DNA of 64,000 nt, taken from contig JAQUQI010000002.1 in NCBI GenBank assembly GCA_028716165.1, forward strand, positions 83,228 to 147,227. The letters run 5' to 3'. The DNA comes from Candidatus Omnitrophota bacterium (lineage in GTDB: Bacteria; Omnitrophota; Gorgyraeia; JABMRG01). The notes under the pieces were generated by a model, which did no database searches, was not told the origin of the DNA, and saw nothing but the letters and a program-made list of their open reading frames with translations. The position numbers and the translations under genes were made by a program. Shown in pieces: positions 43,945 to 60,817 of the stretch (position 1 is the first letter of the stretch; each line of letters starts with the position of its first letter).

Positions 43945-45540
43945 TTATGCCGCCAATAACGCGTTTTCATACGAATTTATAAATTCCATATGCTCCTGGC
44001 TGTAATCTGATATTATCTCAAACCTCTTGTCTTTTAACAACATGACAAGGGCCTCTATCAAACCTTGCCTGCTCCATGCTATCAAGTCTTCTTCGGCGCT
44101 GGCAAAGACCCTACTCTGGCTTATGTTATTATTAAGCATGAAACCCGCTATTATCAAAGCCGACTGGTCTGGCGTTATTGATGTTTGCTTGAATACGTAA
44201 TTTTCAAATATGTTTTTGTCTATGCCTAATTGGCCTAAAAATATATCCGCAGGCATATTTTCTTTGTTGACTAAATAGAACTTTCTGATATCTCCGGCAG
44301 ATTGTTTTATGACAGCTTGTAAAGCCGGGCTTTCCTTTAACGCGTCGGAATAGACAATTACAGCCTGCGCATTAAGGGGCTTGGCTATATTGTCCTTTGT
44401 AGTAGGCGCGTATGCAAGCAAAGCCTGTGCCATCTGAAGCTGGGCCTCATATTCCGCATCCGGCAGTCTTTCAGGTGTAATGCCGGCTGAAGAGGATTTC
44501 GTCTCCGATATATCTTCTTTCGCGGACAGGGTATACTTCTCTGTAACCGGCTTTTTGGTATCACCGGGGATATTACTGATAGGCGATATATTAGGTATGG
44601 TTGACCTTGGCTTTGTAGAAAATACTTCCCGAATGCCTATTATTTTCTGAAATTTAGCAAAGGCGTTGTTTCTAGGTTGAAGCAAATTCCGGCCCAACGC
44701 TACTTCTCCTGAATGGACGGAGATCAGTGTTACATTCTTTAATTCATCCGGTGCCAGAGGTATATCCGAAGCCAATATTTCAACAATACCGTTTTCTGGT
44801 ATTGTATATTTCTTATTGATTAACCCCCTTGGGCTGTCAGGCGCGTATCCTTGCGGTAGAAGGCGAATATAGAAGTTGATACCGGCCTGTTCTTTGGGAA
44901 ATACCACTTGTAATGTTTTATATCCGCTAAAGTTAAAATTGCCGACTGAAAAACAACTGAACATGCCCTTGTCTTCGCCCCATCTGATAGGTTTATCAGT
45001 TATGACTTGTTCCATGACACATTCAACAGCCTTAGCGCTTGACGGCTCCTCTTGGGAATCCTTGATTAACCTTTTATTCACGTTATATTGCAGAATAGGT
45101 ATGCCTGGTTCCATTTGCGCAGTGAGCCATGTCCAAAAAAAGACGCGAGATAAAATAGCCCAGGGGCTTGGCTTTGCTGATTTTAGGGCATCGGATACGG
45201 CATTGCTAAGCTCTTGACGATTATTGATATTAACGACAGTTCTGCTTTCTGGGCTGATTATTTTTATCTCACTATTTGTTACCGCCTTTGCGGATAAGCG
45301 CCACCCTTTAAAAACCTCATTATTAAGAGCCCAAGCTAATGCCCAAGCGTTGAGGGGGGCTTCAAGTGTGAGTGTAACAATTTTCTCGTTTAGTTCCTTT
45401 TCTATGCCTTTCATTACTATCGGTCCCGCAATCGGAGCCCTTAATGTCCATTCTTGGGCCAAGCCAGGGGTTGCAGACAAAACCGTATTATATAAAAAAG
45501 AAAGCACAATTAATAATGAAACAATTCTTTTGTAGCGCAT
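43945..45540 (-). CDS. large secreted hypothetical protein (orphan)
   Basis: Signal peptide IVSLLIVLSFLYNTVLSATPGLAQE. 531 aa. No recognised domain. Confidence 0.6.
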   Translation of the reverse strand: MRYKRIVSLLIVLSFLYNTVLSATPGLAQEWTLRAPIAGPIVMKGIEKELNEKIVTLTLEAPLNAWALAWALNNEVFKGWRLSAKAVTNSEIKIISPESRTVVNINNRQELSNAVSDALKSAKPSPWAILSRVFFWTWLTAQMEPGIPILQYNVNKRLIKDSQEEPSSAKAVECVMEQVITDKPIRWGEDKGMFSCFSVGNFNFSGYKTLQVVFPKEQAGINFYIRLLPQGYAPDSPRGLINKKYTIPENGIVEILASDIPLAPDELKNVTLISVHSGEVALGRNLLQPRNNAFAKFQKIIGIREVFSTKPRSTIPNISPISNIPGDTKKPVTEKYTLSAKEDISETKSSSAGITPERLPDAEYEAQLQMAQALLAYAPTTKDNIAKPLNAQAVIVYSDALKESPALQAVIKQSAGDIRKFYLVNKENMPADIFLGQLGIDKNIFENYVFKQTSITPDQSALIIAGFMLNNNISQSRVFASAEEDLIAWSRQGLIEALVMLLKDKRFEIISDYSQEHMEFINSYENALLAA

Positions 45541-45677: not shown

Positions 45678-46100
45678 TTAACAGATTTTCACGCTAATTA
45701 ACATCTCGTTTAGCTGTTTAAGATCAACCGGCTTATGCAATATCTTGATATCCGGTTTTTCGTAGAGCCTTTTACGGGCAGTTTCTTCGGTATGCCCTGT
45801 AAGCATAATGGGTATGGTATCGGGGCTGGTTTCCTTGAGTCCGGCTATAATGATATCTCCGTCCAGTGGACATGAACTGCTTAAATCCAAATCGCATAAA
45901 AGGACGTCCGGTTTTTCTTTGGCAAGTATAGCCAGGGCTTTTTCAGCCGTATCGGCGCTGGAGATTGCGTAGCCTAAGCGCGTCAAGCATTCGGCTAACA
46001 TATTTAACGCCTTTACATCATCGTCAACCAGCAATATTTTCACTTTAATGCCTCTATGCTTTTGGAAATTCCAGGCAAAACGTGCTTCCGCCGCCGGCAT
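45678..46100 (-). CDS. stand-alone response-regulator receiver (REC) domain protein
   Basis: KILLVDDD, a phospho-acceptor-like Asp in LLCDLDL, and a conserved T/K region. The 5' end overlaps the histidine kinase gene, so the true start may be the internal GTG. Confidence 0.8.
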   Translation of the reverse strand: MPAAEARFAWNFQKHRGIKVKILLVDDDVKALNMLAECLTRLGYAISSADTAEKALAILAKEKPDVLLCDLDLSSSCPLDGDIIIAGLKETSPDTIPIMLTGHTEETARKRLYEKPDIKILHKPVDLKQLNEMLISVKIC

Positions 46101-48132
46101 TATTCCTTGCCGTTATACTGCCTTTATTGCGCAGGATAATTTCACGCACTACTGCCAGCCCGTAACCCGAACCGTCTGTTTTGGTAGTGACAAACGGTTC
46201 AAATATTTTATCAAGCTTATCTTCGGGTATACCGCAGCCCGAATCCGTCACCTCTATTTTTACCTTGTTGTTATCTTCTTTTGCCGTGATCAGAATACAC
46301 CCTTTTTCTTTTATAGCTTCCGCTGCGTTTTTAATCAGATTAAAAAATATCTCTTGCATCTGGTCTTTATCAGCAATGATATCAGGTAAATCCAAAGGTA
46401 TATTTTCTTCTATATGTATCCTGTCTGACTGAAGCTTATGCCCCAGAATATTAAGTGTATCTTTCACGCTTTCTTTTATATTAATGGGTTTTGAATCAAC
46501 AATCTTTTTTGGCTTGGCAAAATTTGAAAGCTTGCCTGTTATGCTGGCGACCTTTTGGATCTCGGACATTATGTCATACATTATTTTTTCCACTTCCTTA
46601 AACTGGTTTTCAAGGTCTCTATTTTCAAAAGGCTTGGCCTTTTTGTTTAATATGTAAGCCTGTATCTGGATGCTTATTCTATTTAACGGATTGCATACTT
46701 CATGATTCACGGCAGAGGCCAATGTCCCTATTGCCGCTAATTTTTCACACTGCGACGCCTGCATAAAAAGCTTAGCGTTGCTTATTGCTATTGAAAGCGC
46801 TTTCATTAAAGTCGTGATTATATCTATATCGTTTTCATCATAAGGCTGATCGGATTTTTTTGCCCCTAAACTTAGTATGCCTACCATTTCATTGTGTATA
46901 ACCAGCGGCAGGCACGCCATGGATTTTATTTTTTCCATGTCTTTTTTTACCGGTTCAGAGGCTTGCGTGCTCTTATTGCGGCTCTGGTAAAGCAAGGGCT
47001 GGTAATTTGCTTTAAGCGCCTGGACAAGACTGCTTTTTGAATCAAAATATACGCCTTTTCCGTCCACTCCAGCCGCGTTATACACTTGATACCCCACCTC
47101 TTCTTTGCTAAGGAGCAAGATAGCGCAATTTGATAAACATAAATGCCTGACCAAAGCCTCAATGGTGACATTGCAGAGCGTATCAAGATTTAAGATAGTT
47201 AATGCTTTGTTGGAGAAATCTTTAAGCATTGTTCGGGCGTCATACTTTTTTTGAAAAAGGTATTTATTGGTTAAGCTTATCAAAAAATTATAAACAGGCT
47301 GTTGTAACAGCACAATAATAACAGCGCTTATCGCCAATGCCAAATACCTGGAGTGCGGAATGTATTTTGCGATAAATTCCTGAGTCAAAAGAGCCGCCAT
47401 GATTATAATGGTGAACACAAAACCGAATAGCCCCGCGAAAACAAGGGTTTTTTTGACAATAACTTCAATATCAAGGAGTTTATGGCGTATAATGGCATAA
47501 GCTACTATTATTACGTATACGGCGATTAAGATATTTAAATAAGGAGAGAATTTAATATCGTACCACATAGGCCAATTAGACGCCCCTCCTATAAAACCAA
47601 AAGCTGCTGCAACTATGCAATATTTTATCTGTTCATGCTTAAAACCGCTACTCGTCTTTAGCCCACGAATAAAATGTATAAAACCATACAATACTTGTAT
47701 AAACCAAAAAACTAAATAAATGTTAAAAAATAAACTTGGTATGGGCCATAATCCTAAATTATATTTTAATATGAACCCATTATAAAAAATACCGGAAAAG
47801 TTGAAATAAATAAAAACGAAACTAACAGCGTAAATGACGCGTAGTAAATTTCTTTTCACAACAAGTCTATCGGTAAAAGCGAAAACAAAATGCAAGAAAG
47901 CGGCATTAATTAAAATGACTCCTAAAACCAAAACTTTAAACCAAAAAATTTTACTTGTATGACCAGCCGTTGTCTGCCATAAAAAATAGCCTATGCTATA
48001 AAGAGTGATAGATAAGTTAACGTTCAAATAGGCCTTGCTGACGGAACTATTCGGTTTTTTTAGATAACCAAACAACCCTAATATCAAACTGGTTAATGCG
48101 TTTATAAGTCCTGTAAAAGCTAAAAAAGTCAT
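46054..48132 (-). CDS. sensor histidine kinase: N-terminal 7-8 TM domain + GAF + HisKA + HATPase_c
   Basis: About 8 hydrophobic helices in the first 330 aa. H-box NHEVCNPLNRI. N, G1 and G2 boxes (DSGCGIP, GSGYGLAV). Confidence 0.85.
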   Translation of the reverse strand: MTFLAFTGLINALTSLILGLFGYLKKPNSSVSKAYLNVNLSITLYSIGYFLWQTTAGHTSKIFWFKVLVLGVILINAAFLHFVFAFTDRLVVKRNLLRVIYAVSFVFIYFNFSGIFYNGFILKYNLGLWPIPSLFFNIYLVFWFIQVLYGFIHFIRGLKTSSGFKHEQIKYCIVAAAFGFIGGASNWPMWYDIKFSPYLNILIAVYVIIVAYAIIRHKLLDIEVIVKKTLVFAGLFGFVFTIIIMAALLTQEFIAKYIPHSRYLALAISAVIIVLLQQPVYNFLISLTNKYLFQKKYDARTMLKDFSNKALTILNLDTLCNVTIEALVRHLCLSNCAILLLSKEEVGYQVYNAAGVDGKGVYFDSKSSLVQALKANYQPLLYQSRNKSTQASEPVKKDMEKIKSMACLPLVIHNEMVGILSLGAKKSDQPYDENDIDIITTLMKALSIAISNAKLFMQASQCEKLAAIGTLASAVNHEVCNPLNRISIQIQAYILNKKAKPFENRDLENQFKEVEKIMYDIMSEIQKVASITGKLSNFAKPKKIVDSKPINIKESVKDTLNILGHKLQSDRIHIEENIPLDLPDIIADKDQMQEIFFNLIKNAAEAIKEKGCILITAKEDNNKVKIEVTDSGCGIPEDKLDKIFEPFVTTKTDGSGYGLAVVREIILRNKGSITARNNAGGGSTFCLEFPKA

Positions 48133-48136
48133 AGTT

Positions 48137-49477
48137 CTATCTTTTGGTTATAATCACAAATAGGATTATGCCAGATTTATCTCTTTCAGTTTGCACATCA
48201 AAGTCTATTGATATGCCTTCTTTTATGATATTAAGAAGTTTTTCTTCATGCCTGGGATAGAATGTCCAGTCTGCCCACCAATCTATGGCGACAGGATCGT
48301 ATTTGATTATATCCTTGTGAGCTAAAATCAGGGTTCCGTTCGGTTGCAGGATATCAAACCAAAAAGAGATAAGTAACTTAAGTAGCCTGTCAGGCAGATA
48401 ATCAGCCAAACCTATACTATAAATAAGCGAATAATCGCCTAAAATTTTTTTATAATCCTGACTATCTTTTATATAGTTTAATACATTATGGTTTAGGTAT
48501 CTATGTTCAAGAAGTTTTGATGCATAGGGACTTAAAACTTTTTTGGAAAAATCCAGCGCCTCTTGATCGTGATCAACCAGAGTGAAGATTGTCTTGTTTT
48601 TCGGCGCAAAGCCTGTTGAGAGCATTTCTACTATTTCTCTGCAGGATCCGCAAGCAATATTTAAAATTTTTGTGGGATTAAACCTTGATTTTAAGAGATA
48701 TTTTTCAAGCATATCTTTCATTTTGTCTTTTCTGTTTCTTACGGCCGCAGCGTACTCATTGTTTAAAAAATACATATCCGAACAATACCCTATATTTTCA
48801 GAGATCGCTTTATTGTTATAAACAAGCTCTATAGTAAAATAATCACCTGGATAACCGCGCGGTTTTTCATAGGCGCGTTTAAGAATTTTGCCTCTATAAG
48901 CCCACGGGCCTAACAACGCTCTAAAACATTCTTTTGATTTTTTGATTAATTTCTTATTGGAAAGCAAGTTTTCAAGATTATGGCCTTTTTCCACAATGTC
49001 ATCAGTTATTCTTCCCGCTTTATTACAGGCATCGGTTAATCGTATTTTATTATTTTGGATATCATTGACAAGAGAATCCAATTGCGACATATATTTCTTA
49101 CAGTGTATAGTCCAGAAGTCTGATACAGTTTGTTTATCATCAGAACACGTTATTTCATCAATAATGGGTTTTATGGTTTCGCGTATGCACATGCCGCGCA
49201 GATAGTCTAGATCCCTTTCCTTTAATCTTATAAAACACGCGCCGTACCTGAAACCGTTTTTTTGTATAAGATGTTTGCTCCAAATGATTTTAAATTCTGT
49301 TTTTATGGATTCGTTTGGCGACAGTTCTATATCCGCAACGGCGTTTGACAGTAGCAAAGGTTTTTCAAAAGCAATGCCGAAACCTGTTTCACTGATGTCT
49401 ATGACTTTACCAAATACATTGGAATTGATACGTAAAGGAAAAGAAGTTTTAATTCTTGGGTATAGCCGTTTATTCAT
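48137..49477 (-). CDS. PilZ-domain protein fused to a class-I SAM-methyltransferase-like domain
   Basis: N-terminal RIKTSFPLRIN...DISETGFGIAF matches the PilZ RxxxR / (D/N)xSxGG motifs. C-terminal ILNIACGSCREIVEM resembles MTase motif I with Gly-to-Ala/Cys substitutions. Confidence 0.55.
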   Translation of the reverse strand: MNKRLYPRIKTSFPLRINSNVFGKVIDISETGFGIAFEKPLLLSNAVADIELSPNESIKTEFKIIWSKHLIQKNGFRYGACFIRLKERDLDYLRGMCIRETIKPIIDEITCSDDKQTVSDFWTIHCKKYMSQLDSLVNDIQNNKIRLTDACNKAGRITDDIVEKGHNLENLLSNKKLIKKSKECFRALLGPWAYRGKILKRAYEKPRGYPGDYFTIELVYNNKAISENIGYCSDMYFLNNEYAAAVRNRKDKMKDMLEKYLLKSRFNPTKILNIACGSCREIVEMLSTGFAPKNKTIFTLVDHDQEALDFSKKVLSPYASKLLEHRYLNHNVLNYIKDSQDYKKILGDYSLIYSIGLADYLPDRLLKLLISFWFDILQPNGTLILAHKDIIKYDPVAIDWWADWTFYPRHEEKLLNIIKEGISIDFDVQTERDKSGIILFVIITKR

Positions 49478-50388
49478 TATTTTACCTTTCTGATCAGGTT
49501 ATGCTTAAAGCATATAGACCATATCATTTTATTCAGTCTTTCGGCGTTTTCTTTGTCTTTTTTTTCATCATAGTTATACATATCGTCGCTTTCAATCCAT
49601 ATACCCCCGCTATGCTTGGCGTCTTTAAAACCGTGGGAGTTTATGTTTTGTTGAGTGCCATGGACAATTATTGCTTTCGGCGCATACTTTGATTTCATAA
49701 TATCACTTATCAGGTTGGCGGTTGATTCGGATTTTTTGCCATGCGGCTTGTCCGTTGGTACCTCGGTAGCGCATATTACTATATCCGGCCTGAAAGCAGA
49801 CAGGGCCCTCCGAGCTTCTTTTTGGCAATATACCGGCATATACTCATATTCGCCGTATGGCTCTACAAGCGGCGGAGGATATTTGTGTTCGCCGTCTTGA
49901 ATAGGCAAAAGATAAGGCATCCAGAACTCTCTTTCAATAAAAAGTATTTTTGCCGCCGGAACAATGTCATTTCTTCTTGTGATTTCATCTAAAGAAACGG
50001 GAATTACCCTGGTAGCGTCTTTTGCCTTTAGAACATCGTCTATTCTGTTTATTATCTCATCAAGTAGAATAGGTTTCGGGAAAAAACCGTCCACTCCAAG
50101 TTCTGCTACTGCTTTTTTCACTTCATTGTCATAACTTGTTATGACTAATACCTTTGTATCGGGATATTCCTGACGAATTATTTTTAGTACCTGTATCCCG
50201 TTTATTCCCGGAAGCTGCATATCAAGCAAAACAATGTCAGGTTTTTTTTCTTCCAATATTTTTAAAGCTTCTTCACCTGTCAGTGTTAAATATATTTCAT
50301 GTTTTAATACTTTTGGGATAAGGTCTGTGAGGAGATTAATAATGCTTACATCGTCATCAACAACAAGGATCTTTTTGATATCCGCCAT
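49477..50388 (-). CDS. response regulator: REC domain + uncharacterised C-terminal flavodoxin-like (degenerate REC-like) domain
   Basis: KILVVDDD...DIVLLDMQLPGINGIQ canonical REC. C-terminal beta-alpha-beta pattern (KILFIE, PDIVICATE, AIIVHGT) without a recognised output domain. Confidence 0.7.
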   Translation of the reverse strand: MADIKKILVVDDDVSIINLLTDLIPKVLKHEIYLTLTGEEALKILEEKKPDIVLLDMQLPGINGIQVLKIIRQEYPDTKVLVITSYDNEVKKAVAELGVDGFFPKPILLDEIINRIDDVLKAKDATRVIPVSLDEITRRNDIVPAAKILFIEREFWMPYLLPIQDGEHKYPPPLVEPYGEYEYMPVYCQKEARRALSAFRPDIVICATEVPTDKPHGKKSESTANLISDIMKSKYAPKAIIVHGTQQNINSHGFKDAKHSGGIWIESDDMYNYDEKKDKENAERLNKMIWSICFKHNLIRKVK

Positions 50389-50503: not shown

Positions 50504-50524
50504 AAAAACGCGAATATCGCGATT
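50504..50524 (-). terminator. rho-independent terminator after the FAD-linked oxidase gene (CGCGA-ATA-TCGCG + U-tract)
   Basis: Palindrome at 50509-50521 with aaaaa at 50504-50508 on plus. Confidence 0.55.
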
Positions 50525-53048: not shown

Positions 53049-54236
53049 TTATTCATAAACGATATTATCCAGGTATATCACGGCTCCGTCCGGATTGGAA
53101 TTTCTATCGGTCATCCAGTAAAAACCACCGCTGACACAAGTAAGGTCTTTACCGGTGAGGTCTATCTGGTATTCTCTCCAAGTATTTGATAATACCACTG
53201 GCCCGATTTCGGCTTTTACAGAATCAGGGTATTGCCCTGTAATTCCTCCGACGCCGAAGCGGACTATGGTTTCGCCGCCCTTTTCTCCGCGAGCCCAGAA
53301 GCTTAATCTCTTTGCTCCGCTTAAATCATAACCGCCCTGCACATCACCCCAGTTATTGACGGGATTCTGCCAATAGACCCCTGCCCAGCCTGCCCCCTGC
53401 GGAGTTTTGCCCGTATATCTAAAACGCAGGCAGTCTTTTCCGGAATGCGGGTTTTCCTCCCACGAAAGCCTTCTTATCGCATCATAGTCTCCGAGCCAGC
53501 CTGAAGGATGATAATGGTTTTTTGGGTCATTTTCATCAAAAAAGACATAAAAAGGACGAAACATTTTATATATCAATTCATCCTTCCATTCTCTCCATTT
53601 TTGCCTGTCATCTTCATTTAAAGGTGTGGGTTGTTCAGGGGCCCTTGATTTATAAATTACTGTCTGATTGCCTTCGCTGACAACGATCTCTTTACCGATA
53701 ACGGATTGCATGCCCGCGCCTTTGACATAGACCCTTCCCTCATATACTTTCAATATGGTCTGGTCGTCTTTTGCTATTGTTTCAAAACCCGTGCCAAGGA
53801 CCCCGCAAACAGCCGTAGGCGTCTTTATTTCAAATTTGCTTCCGGGATCAAGGCCCTTGAGGTCTGATATTAATTTACCCTGTTCCAGGTTTATGCCCTT
53901 ATCTCCCGAGAGCTCTATCTTTTTTATGCCCAGCGACGTATCTTCTGAAGCGGATATAATATTTTTCATGTCCTTGCCGAATTTGATGTCAACGGCGGAA
54001 CCCTTGGCTGTTTTTAGATAATCGCCGTCGGATATTCTAGTATCAAGCGTCAGGGCCGACCATTGCCCTTCCCTTCCCTTTTTGTGGCTGACATAGCCCG
54101 AAACATAAAAGGCCTCGTTCTTTTGGGATGCCTTGCCCGCGGCAAGGACTTGACCCTTTTGGTAATAAAAATAAACACCGCCTGCCGCGGCAGCAATTAC
54201 CGCTATAATGATTAATAATACAATTAGCTTTGACAT
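53049..54236 (-). CDS. membrane-anchored FecR-domain protein with an uncharacterised ~170-aa C-terminal beta-rich domain (paralog 1)
   Basis: N-terminal TM helix, then a FecR-like region (..GSAVDIKFGKD...TPTAVCGVLGTGFE..ILKVYEGRVYVKG..). The C-terminus shares GWLGDY / GAGWAGVYWQNP.NNWG / GGYDLS / NPDGAVIYLDNIVYE with the next gene. Confidence 0.6.
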   Translation of the reverse strand: MSKLIVLLIIIAVIAAAAGGVYFYYQKGQVLAAGKASQKNEAFYVSGYVSHKKGREGQWSALTLDTRISDGDYLKTAKGSAVDIKFGKDMKNIISASEDTSLGIKKIELSGDKGINLEQGKLISDLKGLDPGSKFEIKTPTAVCGVLGTGFETIAKDDQTILKVYEGRVYVKGAGMQSVIGKEIVVSEGNQTVIYKSRAPEQPTPLNEDDRQKWREWKDELIYKMFRPFYVFFDENDPKNHYHPSGWLGDYDAIRRLSWEENPHSGKDCLRFRYTGKTPQGAGWAGVYWQNPVNNWGDVQGGYDLSGAKRLSFWARGEKGGETIVRFGVGGITGQYPDSVKAEIGPVVLSNTWREYQIDLTGKDLTCVSGGFYWMTDRNSNPDGAVIYLDNIVYE

Positions 54237-54990: not shown

Positions 54991-57900
54991 TCATTTTGGC
55001 TTGTCCGCGCAAGAAGCGGCGCCTGAACGGGAAAGCTCCCACCTGTCAAGGACATTTTCCTGAAATTCCTGCATATATAAATATATGCCGGGCGTTACAA
55101 AAAGCGTAACCACCTGCGCGAATATAAGCCCTCCGACGACTATCAGCCCGAGAGGCCTTCTTGAGGCGCCGTCGGCGCCATAACCGAGAGCGATAGGCAG
55201 AGCGCCGATTATAGTTGACGCTCCGGTCATTAGTATCGGCCGAAACCGCACAAGGCAGGCATTGTAGATGGCCTGCGCGCTGTTTTTCTCGCCCTCGTTG
55301 AGATTCTGCTGGGCAAAATCAACCATGATAATACCGTTTTTGGACACAATTCCGAGAAGCATAAATACGCCTATATACGCGTAAAGCGATAACTCTGACC
55401 TGAATAATAAAAGTGTCAGCAGGCCCCCGAAGGCCGCTACGGGAAGCGTGGTAAGTATGGTGAACGGATGTATATAACTTTCATATAAAATACCAAGCAC
55501 TATATACATTAAAAAAATTGCCGCTATCAACAAGCCCGACATGCTTTTAACCGCTGATTGAAATTGTTGGGCCTCGCCCTGGAATGAGCCTGAAGCGCCC
55601 GGAGGCAAAATCGCCCGCGCCAGCCCGGAAACGGTCTTAGTAATTTCCCCAAGCGGCATGTTTTCCTTGAGATTAAACGATATGGTTGCTGAATTCAACT
55701 GGTTATAATGCGGGACATCTTGCGGCCCGACACTCTCCTTTATGTCAATAAGCGAACCCAAAGGCGTAAGTTTGCCGGTGGTTTTTGACCTGACATAGAT
55801 GTTGTCAATGTCGGCAGGATTACGCTTATAGTTTTTGTCTAACTCAACAATGACCCAGTATTGGTCTGTGTCATTTTTAAAAAGCGTTACCTTACCCTGC
55901 GCGTAAGCAAGGCTAAGCGAAGATACAATATCTTCGGCGGTGATGCCGAGTGTTGACGCCCTGTCTCTTAACAGTATAATGTCTAACTGCGGCATATCAA
56001 GTTTTACGCTGTTTTGTATGCCTGTCAGCCCCGGCATGGCCCTCATTTTTTGTTCAAGCAGATTGGCCGCTTCATAGAGTTTTTCCCTGTCCTGCCCGCT
56101 CATGACATAGGAATATTTTGAGCCGGTGGCGGTGCTTTCTCCTCCCGTGCTTATAACAAGGGCCGGCATGGCCATGGTAAATACGAGGCCGTCGCTTATC
56201 ATATACAACTTTGAGTTCAATGCTTCAACGACCTTTGCTATAGGTTGTCTGCCCTTTTCGTTGTGCGGTTTGAGTATAGCGTAAAAAATGCCCGTTGATT
56301 GGTCGGCGCCTGTCTGAAGCCCTGTTACGGTAACGGCTTTTTCTATATTTTTATCGGACTGGAGCACGGCATTGACCTTGTCCTGGAATTGGGACATTTT
56401 TTCAGACGATACGCCCAGAGGCGCCTGCATAAAACCGATGACCGCGCCGCTGTCGCCTTCCGGTATGAAGGTTTTCGGCAATATCCGGATAAACCAAAAC
56501 GTGCCGATAATGCATATTATCCATATGATAAGCGCGATATGCCTGCGCTCAAGGACATATTTTAAAGCGCGGGCATAATAATCCTTGAGCCGTTTTTCTA
56601 TTATGTCGGATTTTTCCTTAAGCCGTGTCTTTTTTTCTTCAGCGCCGCCTGTTTTCGGTTTTTCCTTAAGCATGCGCGCGCACATCATAGGCGTTAATGT
56701 GAGGGCCGCTATAGTGGAACATACTATGGCCGCTACAACCGTAAGCGATAATTCCCTGAACAGCCTGCCGACTATACCGCTCATAAATACGAGCGGCACG
56801 AAAACTATAATAAGGGCGATACTCGTTGAAATAACGGTGCCCGTGATCTCACCCATGCTTTTTATGGCCGCATTCATAGGTTTTTCGCCGGCCTCCACAT
56901 GCCTTACAGTGTTCTCAAGAACGACAATGGCATCATCAACTAAAAATCCTACCGATAAGGTTAGCCCCATCAACGAAAGATTATTAAGGCTGAATCCGGC
57001 CGCGTACATTACGGCAAACGTGCCGACAATCGCAATCGGAAGGGTAATGCTCGGTATCACGGTATCCGAGAGCCTTCCAAGAAAAAGAAATATTATCAAG
57101 ACGACAAGGATAACGGCGATTATTATGGTATCTTTTACGTCCTTAACGGACTCCACAATAGAATTGGATTGGTCGTATAAGATGTCTATTGTTACGGCCC
57201 CGGGCATCTCCTTTTTTAATTCTTCAAGGGTATCCATTATTCTCTTTGACAGAGCGACCGTATTTGCCCCCGATTCCTTGGTAATGGATAAGTATACATT
57301 AGTGTCTTTCCAGCCCAAGCCTTTCTTATATGATATTACCCTTATAACGTCGTTTTTGGAACTGTCATAGCATTTGGCAATATCTTTTAAATACACAGGC
57401 GCGTTGTTCCTGTATGTTATAATGAGATTTTTGTAAGCTTCGGCGTCCATCAACTGCCCCTGCGGCTCTATTGAGAATGTATGGAAAGTTCCGTCAAGGC
57501 TTCCAGCCGGCATTATGATTGTGCCTGTTTTTACGGCTTTTGCCACCTCGTCTATGCCTATATCCATTGCCGCCAGTTTTTTAGGGTCAACCTGCACGCG
57601 GACAGCGGTCTGGGCGCCCCAGACATTGACCTTTGAAACCCCTTCAACCATGCTAAGCCTTTGCCCTATTGCCGTATTACCGTAATCATAGAGTTGGCCC
57701 GAAGTGAGCGTATCGGAACTTACGACAATATGTATGATAGGTTTATCCGACGGGTTTGTTTTTTGATATGTGGGCGGCTGGGGCAGGTCATCGGGCAGAT
57801 TGGACATCGCCCTTGATATGGCCGCCTGGACATCAGGCGCGGCCAGGTCAACATCCACGTTTAGTTCAAATGTCAGAGTTATCTGGGATTGGCTTTCGGT

Positions 57901-58152
57901 ATTGGTTGATATGATCGTTGAAAGCCCTTGTATCTGCATACATTCATTTTCAATGGGTTTTGCAACTGTAGCCGCCATCATTACGGGGCTCGCGCCGGGG
58001 TATACAACTGTAATCGTAATAACGGGGTATTTTACTTCAGGCAAATCGCTTACAGGAAGGCCCATATATGCCGCCGCGCCAAAAATAATGGTTGTTACCA
58101 TCACAAGCACCGTCATTATCGGCCTTCTTATAAAAACTTCGGAAAATATCAT
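54991..58152 (-). CDS. RND efflux transporter permease (HAE1/AcrB-type)
   Basis: 1053 aa with 12 TM helices and two large loops. TM4 GFLVDDAIVVLEN matches the HAE1 signature. Confidence 0.9.
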   Translation of the reverse strand: MIFSEVFIRRPIMTVLVMVTTIIFGAAAYMGLPVSDLPEVKYPVITITVVYPGASPVMMAATVAKPIENECMQIQGLSTIISTNTESQSQITLTFELNVDVDLAAPDVQAAISRAMSNLPDDLPQPPTYQKTNPSDKPIIHIVVSSDTLTSGQLYDYGNTAIGQRLSMVEGVSKVNVWGAQTAVRVQVDPKKLAAMDIGIDEVAKAVKTGTIIMPAGSLDGTFHTFSIEPQGQLMDAEAYKNLIITYRNNAPVYLKDIAKCYDSSKNDVIRVISYKKGLGWKDTNVYLSITKESGANTVALSKRIMDTLEELKKEMPGAVTIDILYDQSNSIVESVKDVKDTIIIAVILVVLIIFLFLGRLSDTVIPSITLPIAIVGTFAVMYAAGFSLNNLSLMGLTLSVGFLVDDAIVVLENTVRHVEAGEKPMNAAIKSMGEITGTVISTSIALIIVFVPLVFMSGIVGRLFRELSLTVVAAIVCSTIAALTLTPMMCARMLKEKPKTGGAEEKKTRLKEKSDIIEKRLKDYYARALKYVLERRHIALIIWIICIIGTFWFIRILPKTFIPEGDSGAVIGFMQAPLGVSSEKMSQFQDKVNAVLQSDKNIEKAVTVTGLQTGADQSTGIFYAILKPHNEKGRQPIAKVVEALNSKLYMISDGLVFTMAMPALVISTGGESTATGSKYSYVMSGQDREKLYEAANLLEQKMRAMPGLTGIQNSVKLDMPQLDIILLRDRASTLGITAEDIVSSLSLAYAQGKVTLFKNDTDQYWVIVELDKNYKRNPADIDNIYVRSKTTGKLTPLGSLIDIKESVGPQDVPHYNQLNSATISFNLKENMPLGEITKTVSGLARAILPPGASGSFQGEAQQFQSAVKSMSGLLIAAIFLMYIVLGILYESYIHPFTILTTLPVAAFGGLLTLLLFRSELSLYAYIGVFMLLGIVSKNGIIMVDFAQQNLNEGEKNSAQAIYNACLVRFRPILMTGASTIIGALPIALGYGADGASRRPLGLIVVGGLIFAQVVTLFVTPGIYLYMQEFQENVLDRWELSRSGAASCADKPK

Positions 58153-59330
58153 TATCTGCTTTCTTTCTCTTTATCTTTACCGTCCGCCTCTACTACAGGC
58201 GCGCCGGGGTAAAGCCCTAATATCCCTGAAATTATGGCTTTTTCACCGGGCCTGGCCCCTTCTTCAATAACAATATAATCATCCTGCCGCAAGCCTGTCT
58301 TTACAAGCCGCAATTCAGCCTTATTTGATTCGTCAAAGATAAAAAGATAATGGCCTTTCTGGCCTATTTTTATGGCGGAATAAGGGGCCAGCACGGCGTT
58401 TTTACTGACGCTCAATATCAACCTGATGGTAGTAAATTGCCCCGCCCATAATTGATGTGTTTTATTGTCAATTAAGGCGCGCGCGTATATTGTTCCCGTT
58501 GTATTATCAACCGCGTTGTTTATAAAAACAAGTTCACCCTCAAAAACGCTTTTGCCTCCTTCAGGCACGATCTCAACTTTTAAAGCGCCCCGGGCCATGG
58601 ATTCTCTCACCCTGAAAAGTTCTCTTTCCGGAAGAGTAAAGTCGGCGAACAAGGCGTCTATATCTTTAATATTGACAAGCACAGGGCCATTGTCAGCTAC
58701 CACTATATTGCCCGGGTCAAGCTGGTTTTTCGCGGTTACGCCGCTTACAGGCGAAACGATATGGCAATAACCCAGATTAATGGCGGCCAACTCAAGCGAT
58801 GCCTTATCAAGGTCAACCTGTCCCTGGGCTGAAAGCAGCTGCGCTTGAAGCGTCTCAAAATCCTGTTTTGATATGAGCTCTTTTTCTACCAGTTTTTTGT
58901 TACGCTCAAGCGTATCTGTTTTTAATTTAAGGTCAGCCTCACTTTGCTCAAGACAGGCCCTGGCCTTGGCCAGTCCGGCTTCATATTCACTCGGATCTAT
59001 GGTGTATAATTTGTCGCCCTGTTTTACATAGTCGCCGTTTTTAAAATGCACCTCTTTTATCCTGCCTGTTACCTGTGATTTTATATCAACGTCAAGCAAA
59101 GGTGAAAGCGTCGCGAAAGACTCCGCGTAAACAGGCACGTCTTTCTGAATTATAAGGCTTGTCTGGATCGGCCTTGGAGGTATGCAGGCCGGTTTCGGCC
59201 GGAATATAATGTTTTTGACGTTAACAAGGGCCGCTAACACAAGCGCCAGCGCCAAGACGCGTTTTAAAATTTTTTTGTCTTTGAGAAGTTTTTTATACGC
59301 GTCAGGGCTTTTATAATTGAATCCTGTCAT
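58152..59330 (-). CDS. RND efflux periplasmic adaptor (membrane fusion protein, AcrA/HlyD family)
   Basis: N-terminal TM/lipoprotein region, coiled-coil hairpin, lipoyl and beta-barrel regions. Start overlaps the RND gene. Confidence 0.85.
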   Translation of the reverse strand: MTGFNYKSPDAYKKLLKDKKILKRVLALALVLAALVNVKNIIFRPKPACIPPRPIQTSLIIQKDVPVYAESFATLSPLLDVDIKSQVTGRIKEVHFKNGDYVKQGDKLYTIDPSEYEAGLAKARACLEQSEADLKLKTDTLERNKKLVEKELISKQDFETLQAQLLSAQGQVDLDKASLELAAINLGYCHIVSPVSGVTAKNQLDPGNIVVADNGPVLVNIKDIDALFADFTLPERELFRVRESMARGALKVEIVPEGGKSVFEGELVFINNAVDNTTGTIYARALIDNKTHQLWAGQFTTIRLILSVSKNAVLAPYSAIKIGQKGHYLFIFDESNKAELRLVKTGLRQDDYIVIEEGARPGEKAIISGILGLYPGAPVVEADGKDKEKESR

Positions 59331-60817
59331 GGGGCCTCTTTCTCCGGCGGTGTTCCGGCTTTTAAAGAACCTGTCGCGTGCGCCAATTCGGCGATTGCCA
59401 CAAATGCCTGCCTTTGAGAATCAACGTATCTTGCCCTGGCATTTGACAGCTCGCTTTGCGCTTGCAAAAGATCAAGCATGCTTCTGATTCCGTGCGAATA
59501 TCCCTCAAGGGCAAGTTCGTGAGATGCCGTAGAGCTGTCAAGATACGCTTTGCCGTATTCCAGTTTTTTGACAGCCGTGTTATAATTAAAATATTTTTTC
59601 CAAACATCGGCGCTTGCCTCAAGCTCAAGCCTTATGAGTTTATCCGTCTGTGCGCCGAATTCCGCCTCTGCCTGGAGTTTTTTGTTAAAATTATAAAAAC
59701 CGTCAAAAATGTCCCAATTAACGCTTAGATACCCGCTATAACTATACCCGTTATCGCGCGCGGGTTTTTCATTATAATATTTATACCAGTCATGACCGTA
59801 TGCCCCGCCCGCGTTAATTTCAGGAAATAGAGCGGAGCTTGCCTGTTTAATTCTTGCTTTTTTTTCGTTTACCAAAGCTCTTGCCGAAGCTATGTCGGGG
59901 CGGCAGGACAATGCTTCATCTATCATCTCCTTGATGTCGGACTCTTGCATCTTAAAAGAGGCCTCTTGGGCCGGAGCGGTAATATCAAAATCCGTGTCCG
60001 CGCTAAAACCCACGGCAATGGCAAGTTCAGCCTTGGCTTGTTTAAGCCTGCCCTTGGCATCTTCCAGTTCGTAAAGCGACCTGTCGCGGCTTGCCTCTGC
60101 CTGCAATTTGTCAAGCTTGGACGCGATGCCTGTCTGGAATTTTAAGTCCGCGGCTTCAAAACCTTTATTGGCGTCAACGAGGTTTGACTCCGCCGATTGC
60201 AGGGTGGAATAAGCGCTAAAAAGCCCGTAATAGGATTTTTGAACGTCAAGTATTAAGTCTTGAAGAGATTGGTTGAAGGCGTAGCCGGCAGATAGCATGT
60301 CTTGATAAGCCGCTTCAATAGAGGCATTTCTGCCTCCGAAATCAAAAAGCAAAAGTTCCGCTTTGCCTGAAGGCCCGTATTTTAATTGGTTTTCTTTTCC
60401 TGATGCCGTATTGGGAACAGATTTCTCTCTTGCGCCCTCGGCGCTGACAGATACCCGCGGCATTAATCCGCTTTTTGCTTGGCCGAGAAGGGCTCTTTTG
60501 GATTTGATGTCATGCCATGATTTTGATGTTATGGGGCTATTGTAAAAAGCAGTGTCAAGGAGTCCGGCAAGTGAAAAAGGCCCTTTGCCATCAGGCACGC
60601 GGCCTCTTATCCCCTGCCATACCTTATCGGGCGTGGGGGTTTTAGACGGTTTGGCGGCAGGCTGCCATTGCTCGTATGGAGGTGTTGGCGCCTTATAATC
60701 TCTGCATCCTGTCAGGCAGAATACCGCTGACAGGGCAAGGGCCGCTAAAGAAAAAATATTTAATATTTTATACCCGTGTATATATTTTTTGGCGAAAAAT
60801 ACGCCTTTTATAGCCAT
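59327..60817 (-). CDS. outer-membrane efflux protein (TolC-like OMF)
   Basis: Lipobox LTGC. Two OEP repeat regions rich in coiled-coil heptads. 496 aa. Confidence 0.8.
   Translation of the reverse strand: MAIKGVFFAKKYIHGYKILNIFSLAALALSAVFCLTGCRDYKAPTPPYEQWQPAAKPSKTPTPDKVWQGIRGRVPDGKGPFSLAGLLDTAFYNSPITSKSWHDIKSKRALLGQAKSGLMPRVSVSAEGAREKSVPNTASGKENQLKYGPSGKAELLLFDFGGRNASIEAAYQDMLSAGYAFNQSLQDLILDVQKSYYGLFSAYSTLQSAESNLVDANKGFEAADLKFQTGIASKLDKLQAEASRDRSLYELEDAKGRLKQAKAELAIAVGFSADTDFDITAPAQEASFKMQESDIKEMIDEALSCRPDIASARALVNEKKARIKQASSALFPEINAGGAYGHDWYKYYNEKPARDNGYSYSGYLSVNWDIFDGFYNFNKKLQAEAEFGAQTDKLIRLELEASADVWKKYFNYNTAVKKLEYGKAYLDSSTASHELALEGYSHGIRSMLDLLQAQSELSNARARYVDSQRQAFVAIAELAHATGSLKAGTPPEKEAP

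Follow-up and report, generated by a model that had tools for sequence, protein, structure and literature searches.

The gene studied here is a 446-amino-acid (aa) open reading frame (ORF) on the minus strand, at exactly positions 48137 to 49477 of the window, by which we mean the whole 64,000-nucleotide stretch of Candidatus Omnitrophota DNA that was analyzed; it is the gene remarked upon by the first-pass annotation. ORF calling, Pfam, AlphaFold2 (AF2), and hhalign together resolve its product into a PilZ domain, a helical lid, and a class I methyltransferase core. An identical protein has already been deposited as a "PilZ domain-containing protein," with a Candidatus Omnitrophica MAG as its source, and NCBIfam assigns it no family. 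A word-indexed search returned more than 470 homologs, and in an exhaustive profile search the homolog clusters (50% identity) numbered 1,154 at E ≤ 1e-30 and 3,862 at E ≤ 1e-10. Relatives in such numbers show that the gene encodes a genuine protein under selection, as opposed to a chance ORF. All 11 invariant positions of the family are kept in the window protein, and the single departure noticed among the near-invariant positions is A402, which is Cys in 114 of 118 homologs. Searching the PDB with the single sequence yielded only a marginal match to OxaG. GC content is 0.365–0.371 over 46–50 kb of the window, against 0.42–0.47 in the adjacent 2-kb bins.

The methyltransferase gene is the second of four same-strand genes that form a tight, translationally coupled unit, in the order REC protein, PilZ-methyltransferase, 7TM-GAF histidine kinase, and REC protein (all coordinates given here and below are on the minus strand). 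The first gene encodes a 303-aa response regulator (49477..50388; Pfam REC, 88.8 bits) with a REC domain carrying D56 and an orphan C-terminal domain of ~175 aa, for which only 45 homolog clusters were found, all in REC proteins of ~300 aa. Its stop codon overlaps the start of the methyltransferase gene (TAATG). A 692-aa sensor histidine kinase (46054..48132) starts 4 nt after the methyltransferase stop, and Pfam places within it a HisKA_7TM domain (47467–48105), a GAF domain (46783–47190), a DHp domain with H477 (46543–46761), and a HATPase_c domain (46060–46371). The last gene encodes a stand-alone receiver of 140 aa with D70 (45678..46100; Pfam REC, 66.4 bits), whose annotated start overlaps the end of the kinase gene by 47 nt and whose true start is uncertain. 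A terminator-like hairpin followed by a T-run (50509..50521), found by consensus scan only, lies between the upstream FAD-oxidase gene and the cassette, and probably bounds the four-gene operon on its upstream side. Neither an ACP gene nor a second PilZ or methyltransferase gene was found in the window, and a regular-expression search of its ORFs found no GGDEF motif. An RND efflux operon is also present upstream of the cassette; we considered it as an exporter and set it aside, as it is not in the conserved block.

An AF2 model of the protein, built on 120 homologs, reached a pLDDT of 93.1 and a pTM of 0.88. At the N-terminus, residues 3–97 (49187..49471) form a PilZ β-barrel that Pfam recognizes (PF07238) with 28 bits against a cutoff of 22.5 (E 3e-6), covering profile positions 2–100 of 102. 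The model places six strands within residues 9–84 (9–17, 21–28, 32–37, 45–51, 57–70, and 75–84), followed by a helix at 87–108, with pLDDT of about 88–94. Among PDB sequences, the family profile matches the PilZ domain of Bacillus subtilis YpfA (5vx6, E 9e-4), with weak matches to Alg44 (E about 0.5). Both c-di-GMP motifs can be read in the translation, and their conservation was counted over the 104 homologs that carry a PilZ domain. RxxxR is present as R4-L-Y-P-R8 (49454..49468) and kept in 101 of 104; D/NxSxxG is present as D27-I-S29-E-T-G32 (49382..49399) and kept in 89; 88 of the 104 keep both. Judged by this conservation, the PilZ domain is clearly maintained as a canonical c-di-GMP receptor, and the window protein would be expected to bind c-di-GMP.

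The helix at residues 87–108 (49154..49219), which ends the PilZ domain and links it to the remainder of the protein, may act as a transmission element, because the equivalent helix mediates the MapZ-CheR1 contact. In that Pseudomonas aeruginosa pair, c-di-GMP controls a class I SAM methyltransferase, with MapZ making contact via its PilZ C-terminal helices. Further precedents are a Xanthomonas PilZ adaptor acting with an N5-glutamine methyltransferase and the inhibition of RlmI by c-di-GMP. In these systems, protein or rRNA methyltransferases are controlled in trans or through the nucleotide binding to them directly, whereas the window protein carries its PilZ domain in cis, fused to a methyltransferase of small-molecule type. 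Literature searches, including two surveys of PilZ proteins, found no description of such a cis fusion, and neither PhcB searched together with PilZ nor Omnitrophota searched together with c-di-GMP led to anything relevant. The first-pass annotation had called the PilZ-methyltransferase arrangement unusual. This holds for the literature but not for sequence space, where the arrangement is common in Omnitrophota and neighboring phyla.

C-terminal to the PilZ domain, the AF2 model contains a helical bundle at residues 112–263 (48689..49144), assigned as the lid or substrate domain, and a Rossmann SAM-binding core at residues 269–445 (48143..48673). The core is a seven-stranded Rossmann-like sheet ending in a β6–β7 hairpin, which is typical of class I methyltransferases. 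Pfam and AF2 thus bear out the proposal that PilZ stands N-terminal to a class I methyltransferase-like domain, and the structural prediction did not show a non-Rossmann fold, which the annotation had named as grounds for rejecting it. The size of ~300 aa proposed for the methyltransferase domain is right if the lid is counted, but the Rossmann core itself comprises residues 269–445 only. The Pfam methyltransferase family matched is Methyltransf_20 (PF12147, "putative methyltransferase"), at residues 215–289; the score of 24.9 bits exceeds the gathering cutoff of 21, yet the match is partial, spanning only profile positions 78–155, or 78 of 309, and many homologs of the window protein have no Methyltransf_20 match at all. 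A near-invariant loop, KPRGYPGDY (residues 205–213, 48839..48865), is a family signature that aligns to the invariant K219–Y227 of PhcB, where it reads KPLGYAGDY. Within this loop, pLDDT falls below 50 at residues 208–210, which suggests that the loop is mobile.

The glycine-rich loop of the SAM site had attracted attention in the first-pass annotation, which reported that GxGxG was replaced by ACGSC and proposed weak SAM binding or binding of a different nucleotide. The string is indeed present, at residues 275–279, within motif I (ILNIACGSCRE, 48635..48667), which aligns to LNVGCGPAxE of PhcB. Across 120 homologs, motif I is conserved at N273 (111), A275 (111), C276 (119), G277 (120), S278 (111), C279 (106), R280 (120), and E281 (120). 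In a profile alignment, the Pyrococcus SAM methyltransferase 1wzn reads LDLACGTG where the family reads LNLACGSC, and therefore Ala at the first Gly position is ordinary; OxaG also reads ACGTG in motif I. Set against the E/DxGxGxG consensus, the real deviations are Asn for Asp and a residue other than Gly, here Cys, at the third glycine position. The PhcB family shows deviations of both kinds, and in the literature it figures as the methyltransferase needed for signal synthesis (PMC8578825, PMC6989110); with the loop conserved across 120 homologs as well, the proposal of weak SAM binding or of another nucleotide is unsupported. The acidic residue that ends β2 and occupies the ribose-binding position, D302 (48572..48574), is invariant and aligns with the β2 Asp of 1wzn and with D318 of PhcB. 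It also has the same structural position as D147 of FmtB, and the D147A mutation in FmtB abolishes function (PMC5426589).

The Asn and the Cys would be the grounds for regarding the site as degenerate, and the domain as a sensor or pseudo-enzyme whose affinity for SAM is weak or whose ligand is a different nucleotide. The occurrence of the same two kinds of deviation in the PhcB family, the invariance of G277 and D302, the conservation of NxACGSCRE across the 120 homologs, and the ACGTG of 1wzn and OxaG all speak against this view, which we consider the least probable of the readings discussed here. From these alignments, the ACGSC loop marks the family and does not point to decay, and the window protein would be expected to bind SAM and transfer methyl groups. 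Overall, what the first-pass annotation observed holds, and its interpretation finds partial support.

The methyltransferase part of the protein led to PhcB by several routes. Among relatives of METHYLTRANSFERASE, homologs in several JGI records carry the name [quoted passage not shown] that is, PhcB. When plasmids were searched by tblastn, a 468-aa methyltransferase turned up in Paraburkholderia graminis, encoded on a plasmid in an operon of the order methyltransferase-HK-RR-RR. Proteins 64–92% identical to it occur in Cupriavidus, Massilia, Pseudoduganella, and Paraburkholderia, and some of these are annotated with that PhcB name or as "Regulatory protein." R22 is invariant in the family of the P. 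graminis protein; R22 is the site of an adaptive PhcB mutation (R22C) and is conserved in Ralstonia, Cupriavidus, and Paraburkholderia (PMC6989110). The window protein matches the P. graminis protein by BLASTP over residues 169–441 (E 1e-21), and hhalign aligns the two families with 99.7% probability (E 1.2e-25, 243 columns, residues 191–441 to 205–458), though identity to PhcB is only 24%. Positions that the two families share, mostly invariant, include K205-P-x-G208-Y209-x-G211-D212-Y213, R247/R249, N273, C276, G277, E281, D302, G356-L-x-D359-Y360-L-x-D363, W404, and R409. The two families have in common the motifs KPxGYxGDY, A(V/H)RNR, LNxxCG..E, the β2 Asp, and GLxDYLxD. On these alignments, the methyltransferase core is homologous to that of PhcB, the 3-OH-PAME/3-OH-MAME synthase of the PhcB/PhcS(RQ) quorum-sensing module in Ralstonia, Cupriavidus, and Paraburkholderia, which KEGG lists under the extracellular-factor name given above.

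The resemblance extends to layout and gene order. Both proteins have an N-terminal β-rich domain of ~100 aa, then helices, then the Rossmann core, and both genes lie directly upstream of a gene for a polytopic membrane histidine kinase, with REC proteins adjoining. The N-terminus is a canonical PilZ domain here, whereas that of PhcB has no detectable similarity to it (hhalign 0.1–0.4%). We had considered that the PhcB N-terminus might be a cryptic PilZ domain, and this profile–profile comparison of the N-termini gave the idea no support; the AF2 model of the PhcB family is β-rich over residues 1–100 and unreliable there, with pLDDT of 24–57. The N-terminal region of PhcB is functionally important, as R22C indicates, and PhcQ influences signal synthesis (PMC6989110). 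The kinase sensors also differ: the HisKA_7TM and GAF domains found here are not homologous to the PhcS-type sensor (hhalign 0.4%, which ruled out homology of the 7TM domain), and the kinase cores alone align. Likewise, the REC proteins align with PhcR/PhcQ in the REC domain only, and among the ORFs examined around the cassette, in the part of the window that was scanned, there was no PhcA-type LysR regulator. The cassette is found in Omnitrophota and other phyla, as opposed to Betaproteobacteria for the Phc system; Phc-type signaling has been described as genus-specific to Ralstonia (PMC9102662), and Phc homologs have been noted in Cupriavidus and Paraburkholderia (PMC6989110). Taken together, the comparisons suggest that the cassette works most like PhcB/PhcS, without being a member of the Phc system.

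[quoted passage not shown] FmtB combines a Rossmann core with a helical fatty-acid-binding domain, as does the window protein. 3OCJ is absent at E ≤ 10 from profile searches of PDB sequences, such that homology is not detectable at the sequence level. FmtB differs in having neither a PilZ nor a REC domain, and in being monocistronic and unpaired with neighboring two-component genes, and the literature reports that it showed no activity in vitro. Other strong structural neighbors are polyketide synthase C-methyltransferases and alpha-keto-acid methyltransferases.

CheR, which had been suggested as a family to align against, appeared neither in the search with a CheR SAM-binding profile nor among the fold neighbors, and no CheR signal was found for the window protein. 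This bears on the idea that the protein methylates the neighboring receptor kinase or a response regulator, as a CheR-like adaptation enzyme under c-di-GMP control. The methyltransferase is encoded beside a membrane receptor, MapZ-CheR1 is a precedent for control of CheR1 by c-di-GMP and PilZ, and the PhcB-like protein has a weak Pfam match to CheR (E 0.0011, below cutoff); we nonetheless regard a CheR-like role as very unlikely.

To place the cassette in a wider context, one genome per species was scanned, and relatives were found in at least 578 genomes, spanning Omnitrophota, Spirochaetota/Leptospirales, Planctomycetota, Nitrospirota, Thermodesulfobacteriota, and Margulisiibacteriota. ORFs were then called at 85 loci and searched with HMMs built for this analysis. 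For the PilZ form, the start of a HisKA_7TM gene lay between −10 and +34 nt from the methyltransferase stop at 32 of 43 loci, and 3 more had a different membrane hybrid kinase 100–216 nt downstream. Forms without PilZ had a 7TM neighbor at 19 of 42 loci, and the distant members from Planctomycetota and Nitrospirota mostly lacked one. In a reciprocal test, metagenome contigs were scanned with the 7TM domain alone, for which a 47-sequence alignment was too diverse as a seed and a closer set of 21 sequences worked. A methyltransferase gene ended immediately upstream of the 7TM gene at 56 of the 63 assessable loci, and 29 of these 56 methyltransferases had a recognizable PilZ domain. At one locus, L004, the 7TM domain has an HD/HD_5 domain joined to it in place of a kinase. 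Immediately upstream of this gene is a 303-aa methyltransferase paralog, and the closer 362-aa homolog lies ~2 kb upstream. At least in L004, therefore, the methyltransferase is coupled to the sensor domain as opposed to phosphotransfer.

The three closest relatives, L091, L092, and L093, keep the RR-methyltransferase-HK block at 61–70%, 52–65%, and 47–61% identity, respectively, and BLAST of these loci against the window gave no match outside the four cassette genes. A small ACP gene directly follows the kinase gene in L091 and L092 and lies two genes further on in L093/L001; overall, about 17 distinct loci, out of roughly 150 examined, contain ACP-like ORFs. These genes, dedicated to the cassette in its closest relatives, could indicate a small secondary-metabolite or lipid pathway in which the protein serves as C- or O-methyltransferase, with an ACP-bound acyl or beta-ketoacyl substrate instead of a free fatty acid. 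The structural matches to the polyketide synthase (PKS) methyltransferase domains CurJ, AprA MT2, and citrinin CMeT point the same way, as does a tblastn match to a plasmid homolog inside a type I PKS of Enterobacter. Most cassettes, including that of the window, nevertheless have no ACP; no ketosynthase, acyltransferase, or thioesterase is conserved beside the methyltransferase–kinase pair; and free fatty acids are the substrates of the top relatives, by structure and by sequence. An ACP-linked substrate seems to us unlikely.

Three loci encode REC-PilZ-methyltransferase fusions, and the REC domain of these fusions is most similar, at 47–51% identity, to the stand-alone REC protein encoded directly upstream of the methyltransferase elsewhere. 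By a Rosetta-stone argument, this resemblance implies that the upstream REC protein acts on the enzyme. Phosphorylation feeding into the enzyme, as the fusions and the adjacent upstream REC indicate, could also mean that the methyltransferase is a regulated output of the 7TM kinase, the REC proteins, and c-di-GMP. The 7TM domain would then sense membrane state, an external lipid, or the like, and the product would be a metabolite or a lipid modification and not a signal. Gene order alone is silent on the direction of information flow, nor is FmtB, whose structure is the closest, known to produce a signal. On the other hand, the 7TM gene with HD/HD_5 output is still directly preceded by a methyltransferase paralog, a pairing at 56 of 63 loci is unusually specific for a generic output, and PhcB, the characterized sequence relative, is a signal synthase encoded beside its receptor kinase. 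We consider such an output enzyme rather unlikely.

We propose instead that the protein is a SAM-dependent small-molecule methyltransferase of the PhcB/FmtB type, gated by c-di-GMP and acting with the kinase in an autoinducer-type loop, a reading that we hold to be about evenly balanced between right and wrong. In this model, c-di-GMP would bind R4/R8 together with D27/S29/G32 of the PilZ barrel, and the resulting change would pass via the C-terminal helix at 87–108 to the lid at 112–263, which would cover the substrate pocket, and so switch catalysis; the sign of this regulation, like the step itself, is conjectured. The phosphorylated upstream REC protein would provide a second input to the enzyme. 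The substrate would most likely be a fatty-acid-like carboxylate and the product a methyl ester. Being hydrophobic, the methylated product would partition into the membrane, where the HisKA_7TM domain of the adjacent kinase may sense it. The kinase would then phosphorylate both REC proteins, closing an autoinducer-type feedback loop that would be Phc-like or autocrine.

Several observations weigh against this model. Identity to PhcB is low, and class I methyltransferases change substrate easily. With no homology between the 7TM domain and the PhcS-type sensor, the analogy to a receptor rests on gene order only, and a kinase that controls the enzyme and does not sense its product would fit the adjacency equally well. 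Also counting against the model are the strong structural similarity to polyketide synthase C-methyltransferases and alpha-keto-acid methyltransferases, the Enterobacter homolog inside a type I PKS, the missing 7TM neighbor in the more distant members from Planctomycetota and Nitrospirota, the failure to find an ACP gene or, by regular expression on ORFs, a GGDEF motif in the window, and the inactivity of FmtB in vitro. Based on sequence, the protein is best described, at present, as a putatively c-di-GMP-gated, PhcB-like methyltransferase in a conserved methyltransferase/7TM-kinase/REC cassette.

A broader reading is that the PilZ-methyltransferase and the HisKA_7TM kinase constitute an unrecognized, widespread autoinducer synthase/receptor system, with a signal of the fatty-acid-methyl-ester type, gated directly by c-di-GMP and phosphorylation. 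We advance this as a tentative possibility that may well prove wrong. If true, it would provide the first ligand class for the HisKA_7TM sensor and thereby a testable ligand hypothesis for a domain to which the papers searched assign none. For c-di-GMP, it would be the first known direct action on an autoinducer synthase. One polypeptide would then join two major decision systems of bacteria, with the output of a lipid-type signal, either cell-to-cell or autocrine, set directly by intracellular c-di-GMP; such links have so far been described at the level of transcription or via trans-acting adaptors. Phc-type signaling would be extended to mostly uncultivated phyla, including Omnitrophota, and a concrete function would be available for more than 1,000 clusters now labeled only "PilZ domain-containing protein" or "class I SAM-dependent methyltransferase."

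The four genes of the cassette seem to travel together as a unit. Over the cassette (window positions 46001-50000) GC content falls to 0.365-0.371, whereas the flanking 2-kb bins are at 0.42-0.47. When the window was compared by BLAST with the loci carrying the closest relatives of the cassette (L091-L093), the four cassette genes were the sole matches. Directly downstream lies a minus-strand gene (43945-45540) for a protein of 531 aa whose N-terminus resembles a signal peptide; the protein has no Pfam match, and the related loci used for comparison contain no equivalent. A few kb upstream, and outside the conserved cassette block, lies a complete RND efflux operon (54991-60817, minus strand) comprising an OEP outer-membrane factor, an HlyD-type adaptor, and an AcrB-type pump; a FecR-domain protein is encoded at 53049-54236.

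Within the cassette, the 303-aa response regulator carries, after its REC domain, a second domain of ~175 aa that makes up its C-terminal half (approximately residues 127-303; 49477-50001, minus strand) and has no match in Pfam or PDB. Only 45 homolog clusters were found among 5.8 billion proteins searched. The full-length homologs all have a REC domain and a total length near 300 aa, every homolog with an organism name is from Omnitrophota, and several are on contigs equal in size to those carrying PilZ-methyltransferase homologs. It looks like an orphan output domain confined to the PilZ-methyltransferase cassette.

A small acyl-carrier-protein (PP-binding) gene accompanies the closest relatives of the cassette, directly after the kinase in L091 (6128-6358) and L092 (4904-5176), and two genes on from it in L093/L001 (L093:6711-6974, L001:10059-10322). 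Among roughly 150 loci examined, about 17 distinct ones have acyl-carrier-protein-like ORFs, and there is no acyl-carrier-protein gene within the 64-kb window.

We also examined the methyltransferase against PhcB, the quorum-sensing signal methyltransferase family homologous in its catalytic core. Residue 402 (48272-48274), which falls in the DWFCDW motif, is Ala in the window protein, compared with Cys in 114 of 118 homologs. The corresponding residue in PhcB is Leu, so the motif Cys is probably not catalytic. The position held by PilZ in the window protein is occupied in PhcB by a conserved, beta-rich region of ~100 aa, possibly a decayed PilZ (residues 1-100; PhcB family alignments A2 and A3, e.g., member P0171), in which R22 is invariant. 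The substitution R22C changes quorum-sensing responsiveness (PMC6989110). Sequence similarity between this region and PilZ was not detected, and its AF2 model was unreliable (pLDDT 24-57).

Elsewhere, the arrangement varies. Tandem pairs of cassettes occur in some Omnitrophota genomes (L040:2-16252 and L065:1475-16113), with the second PilZ-methyltransferase in each pair followed by a conserved seven-gene block whose products are about 360, 415, 417, 348, 266, 459, and 293 aa. Rhizobial plasmids commonly encode a member of the wider family that consists of the methyltransferase alone, about 345 aa and 27% identical to residues 202-423 of the window protein; it is carried by Rhizobium johnstonii pRL12 (L009:2511-5726) and 139 other plasmid records, mostly from Rhizobium; on pRL12, a gene for a GGDEF-domain phosphodiesterase adjoins it in divergent orientation. 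In L004 (8152-11221; on the same contig as L013), HisKA_7TM is fused to an HD/HD_5 (HD-GYP-type) domain in place of a kinase. Directly preceding the fusion gene is a 303-aa methyltransferase paralog, and a closer homolog of 362 aa is encoded ~2 kb upstream. The fusion protein of L004 may link the same signal to the turnover of c-di-GMP.
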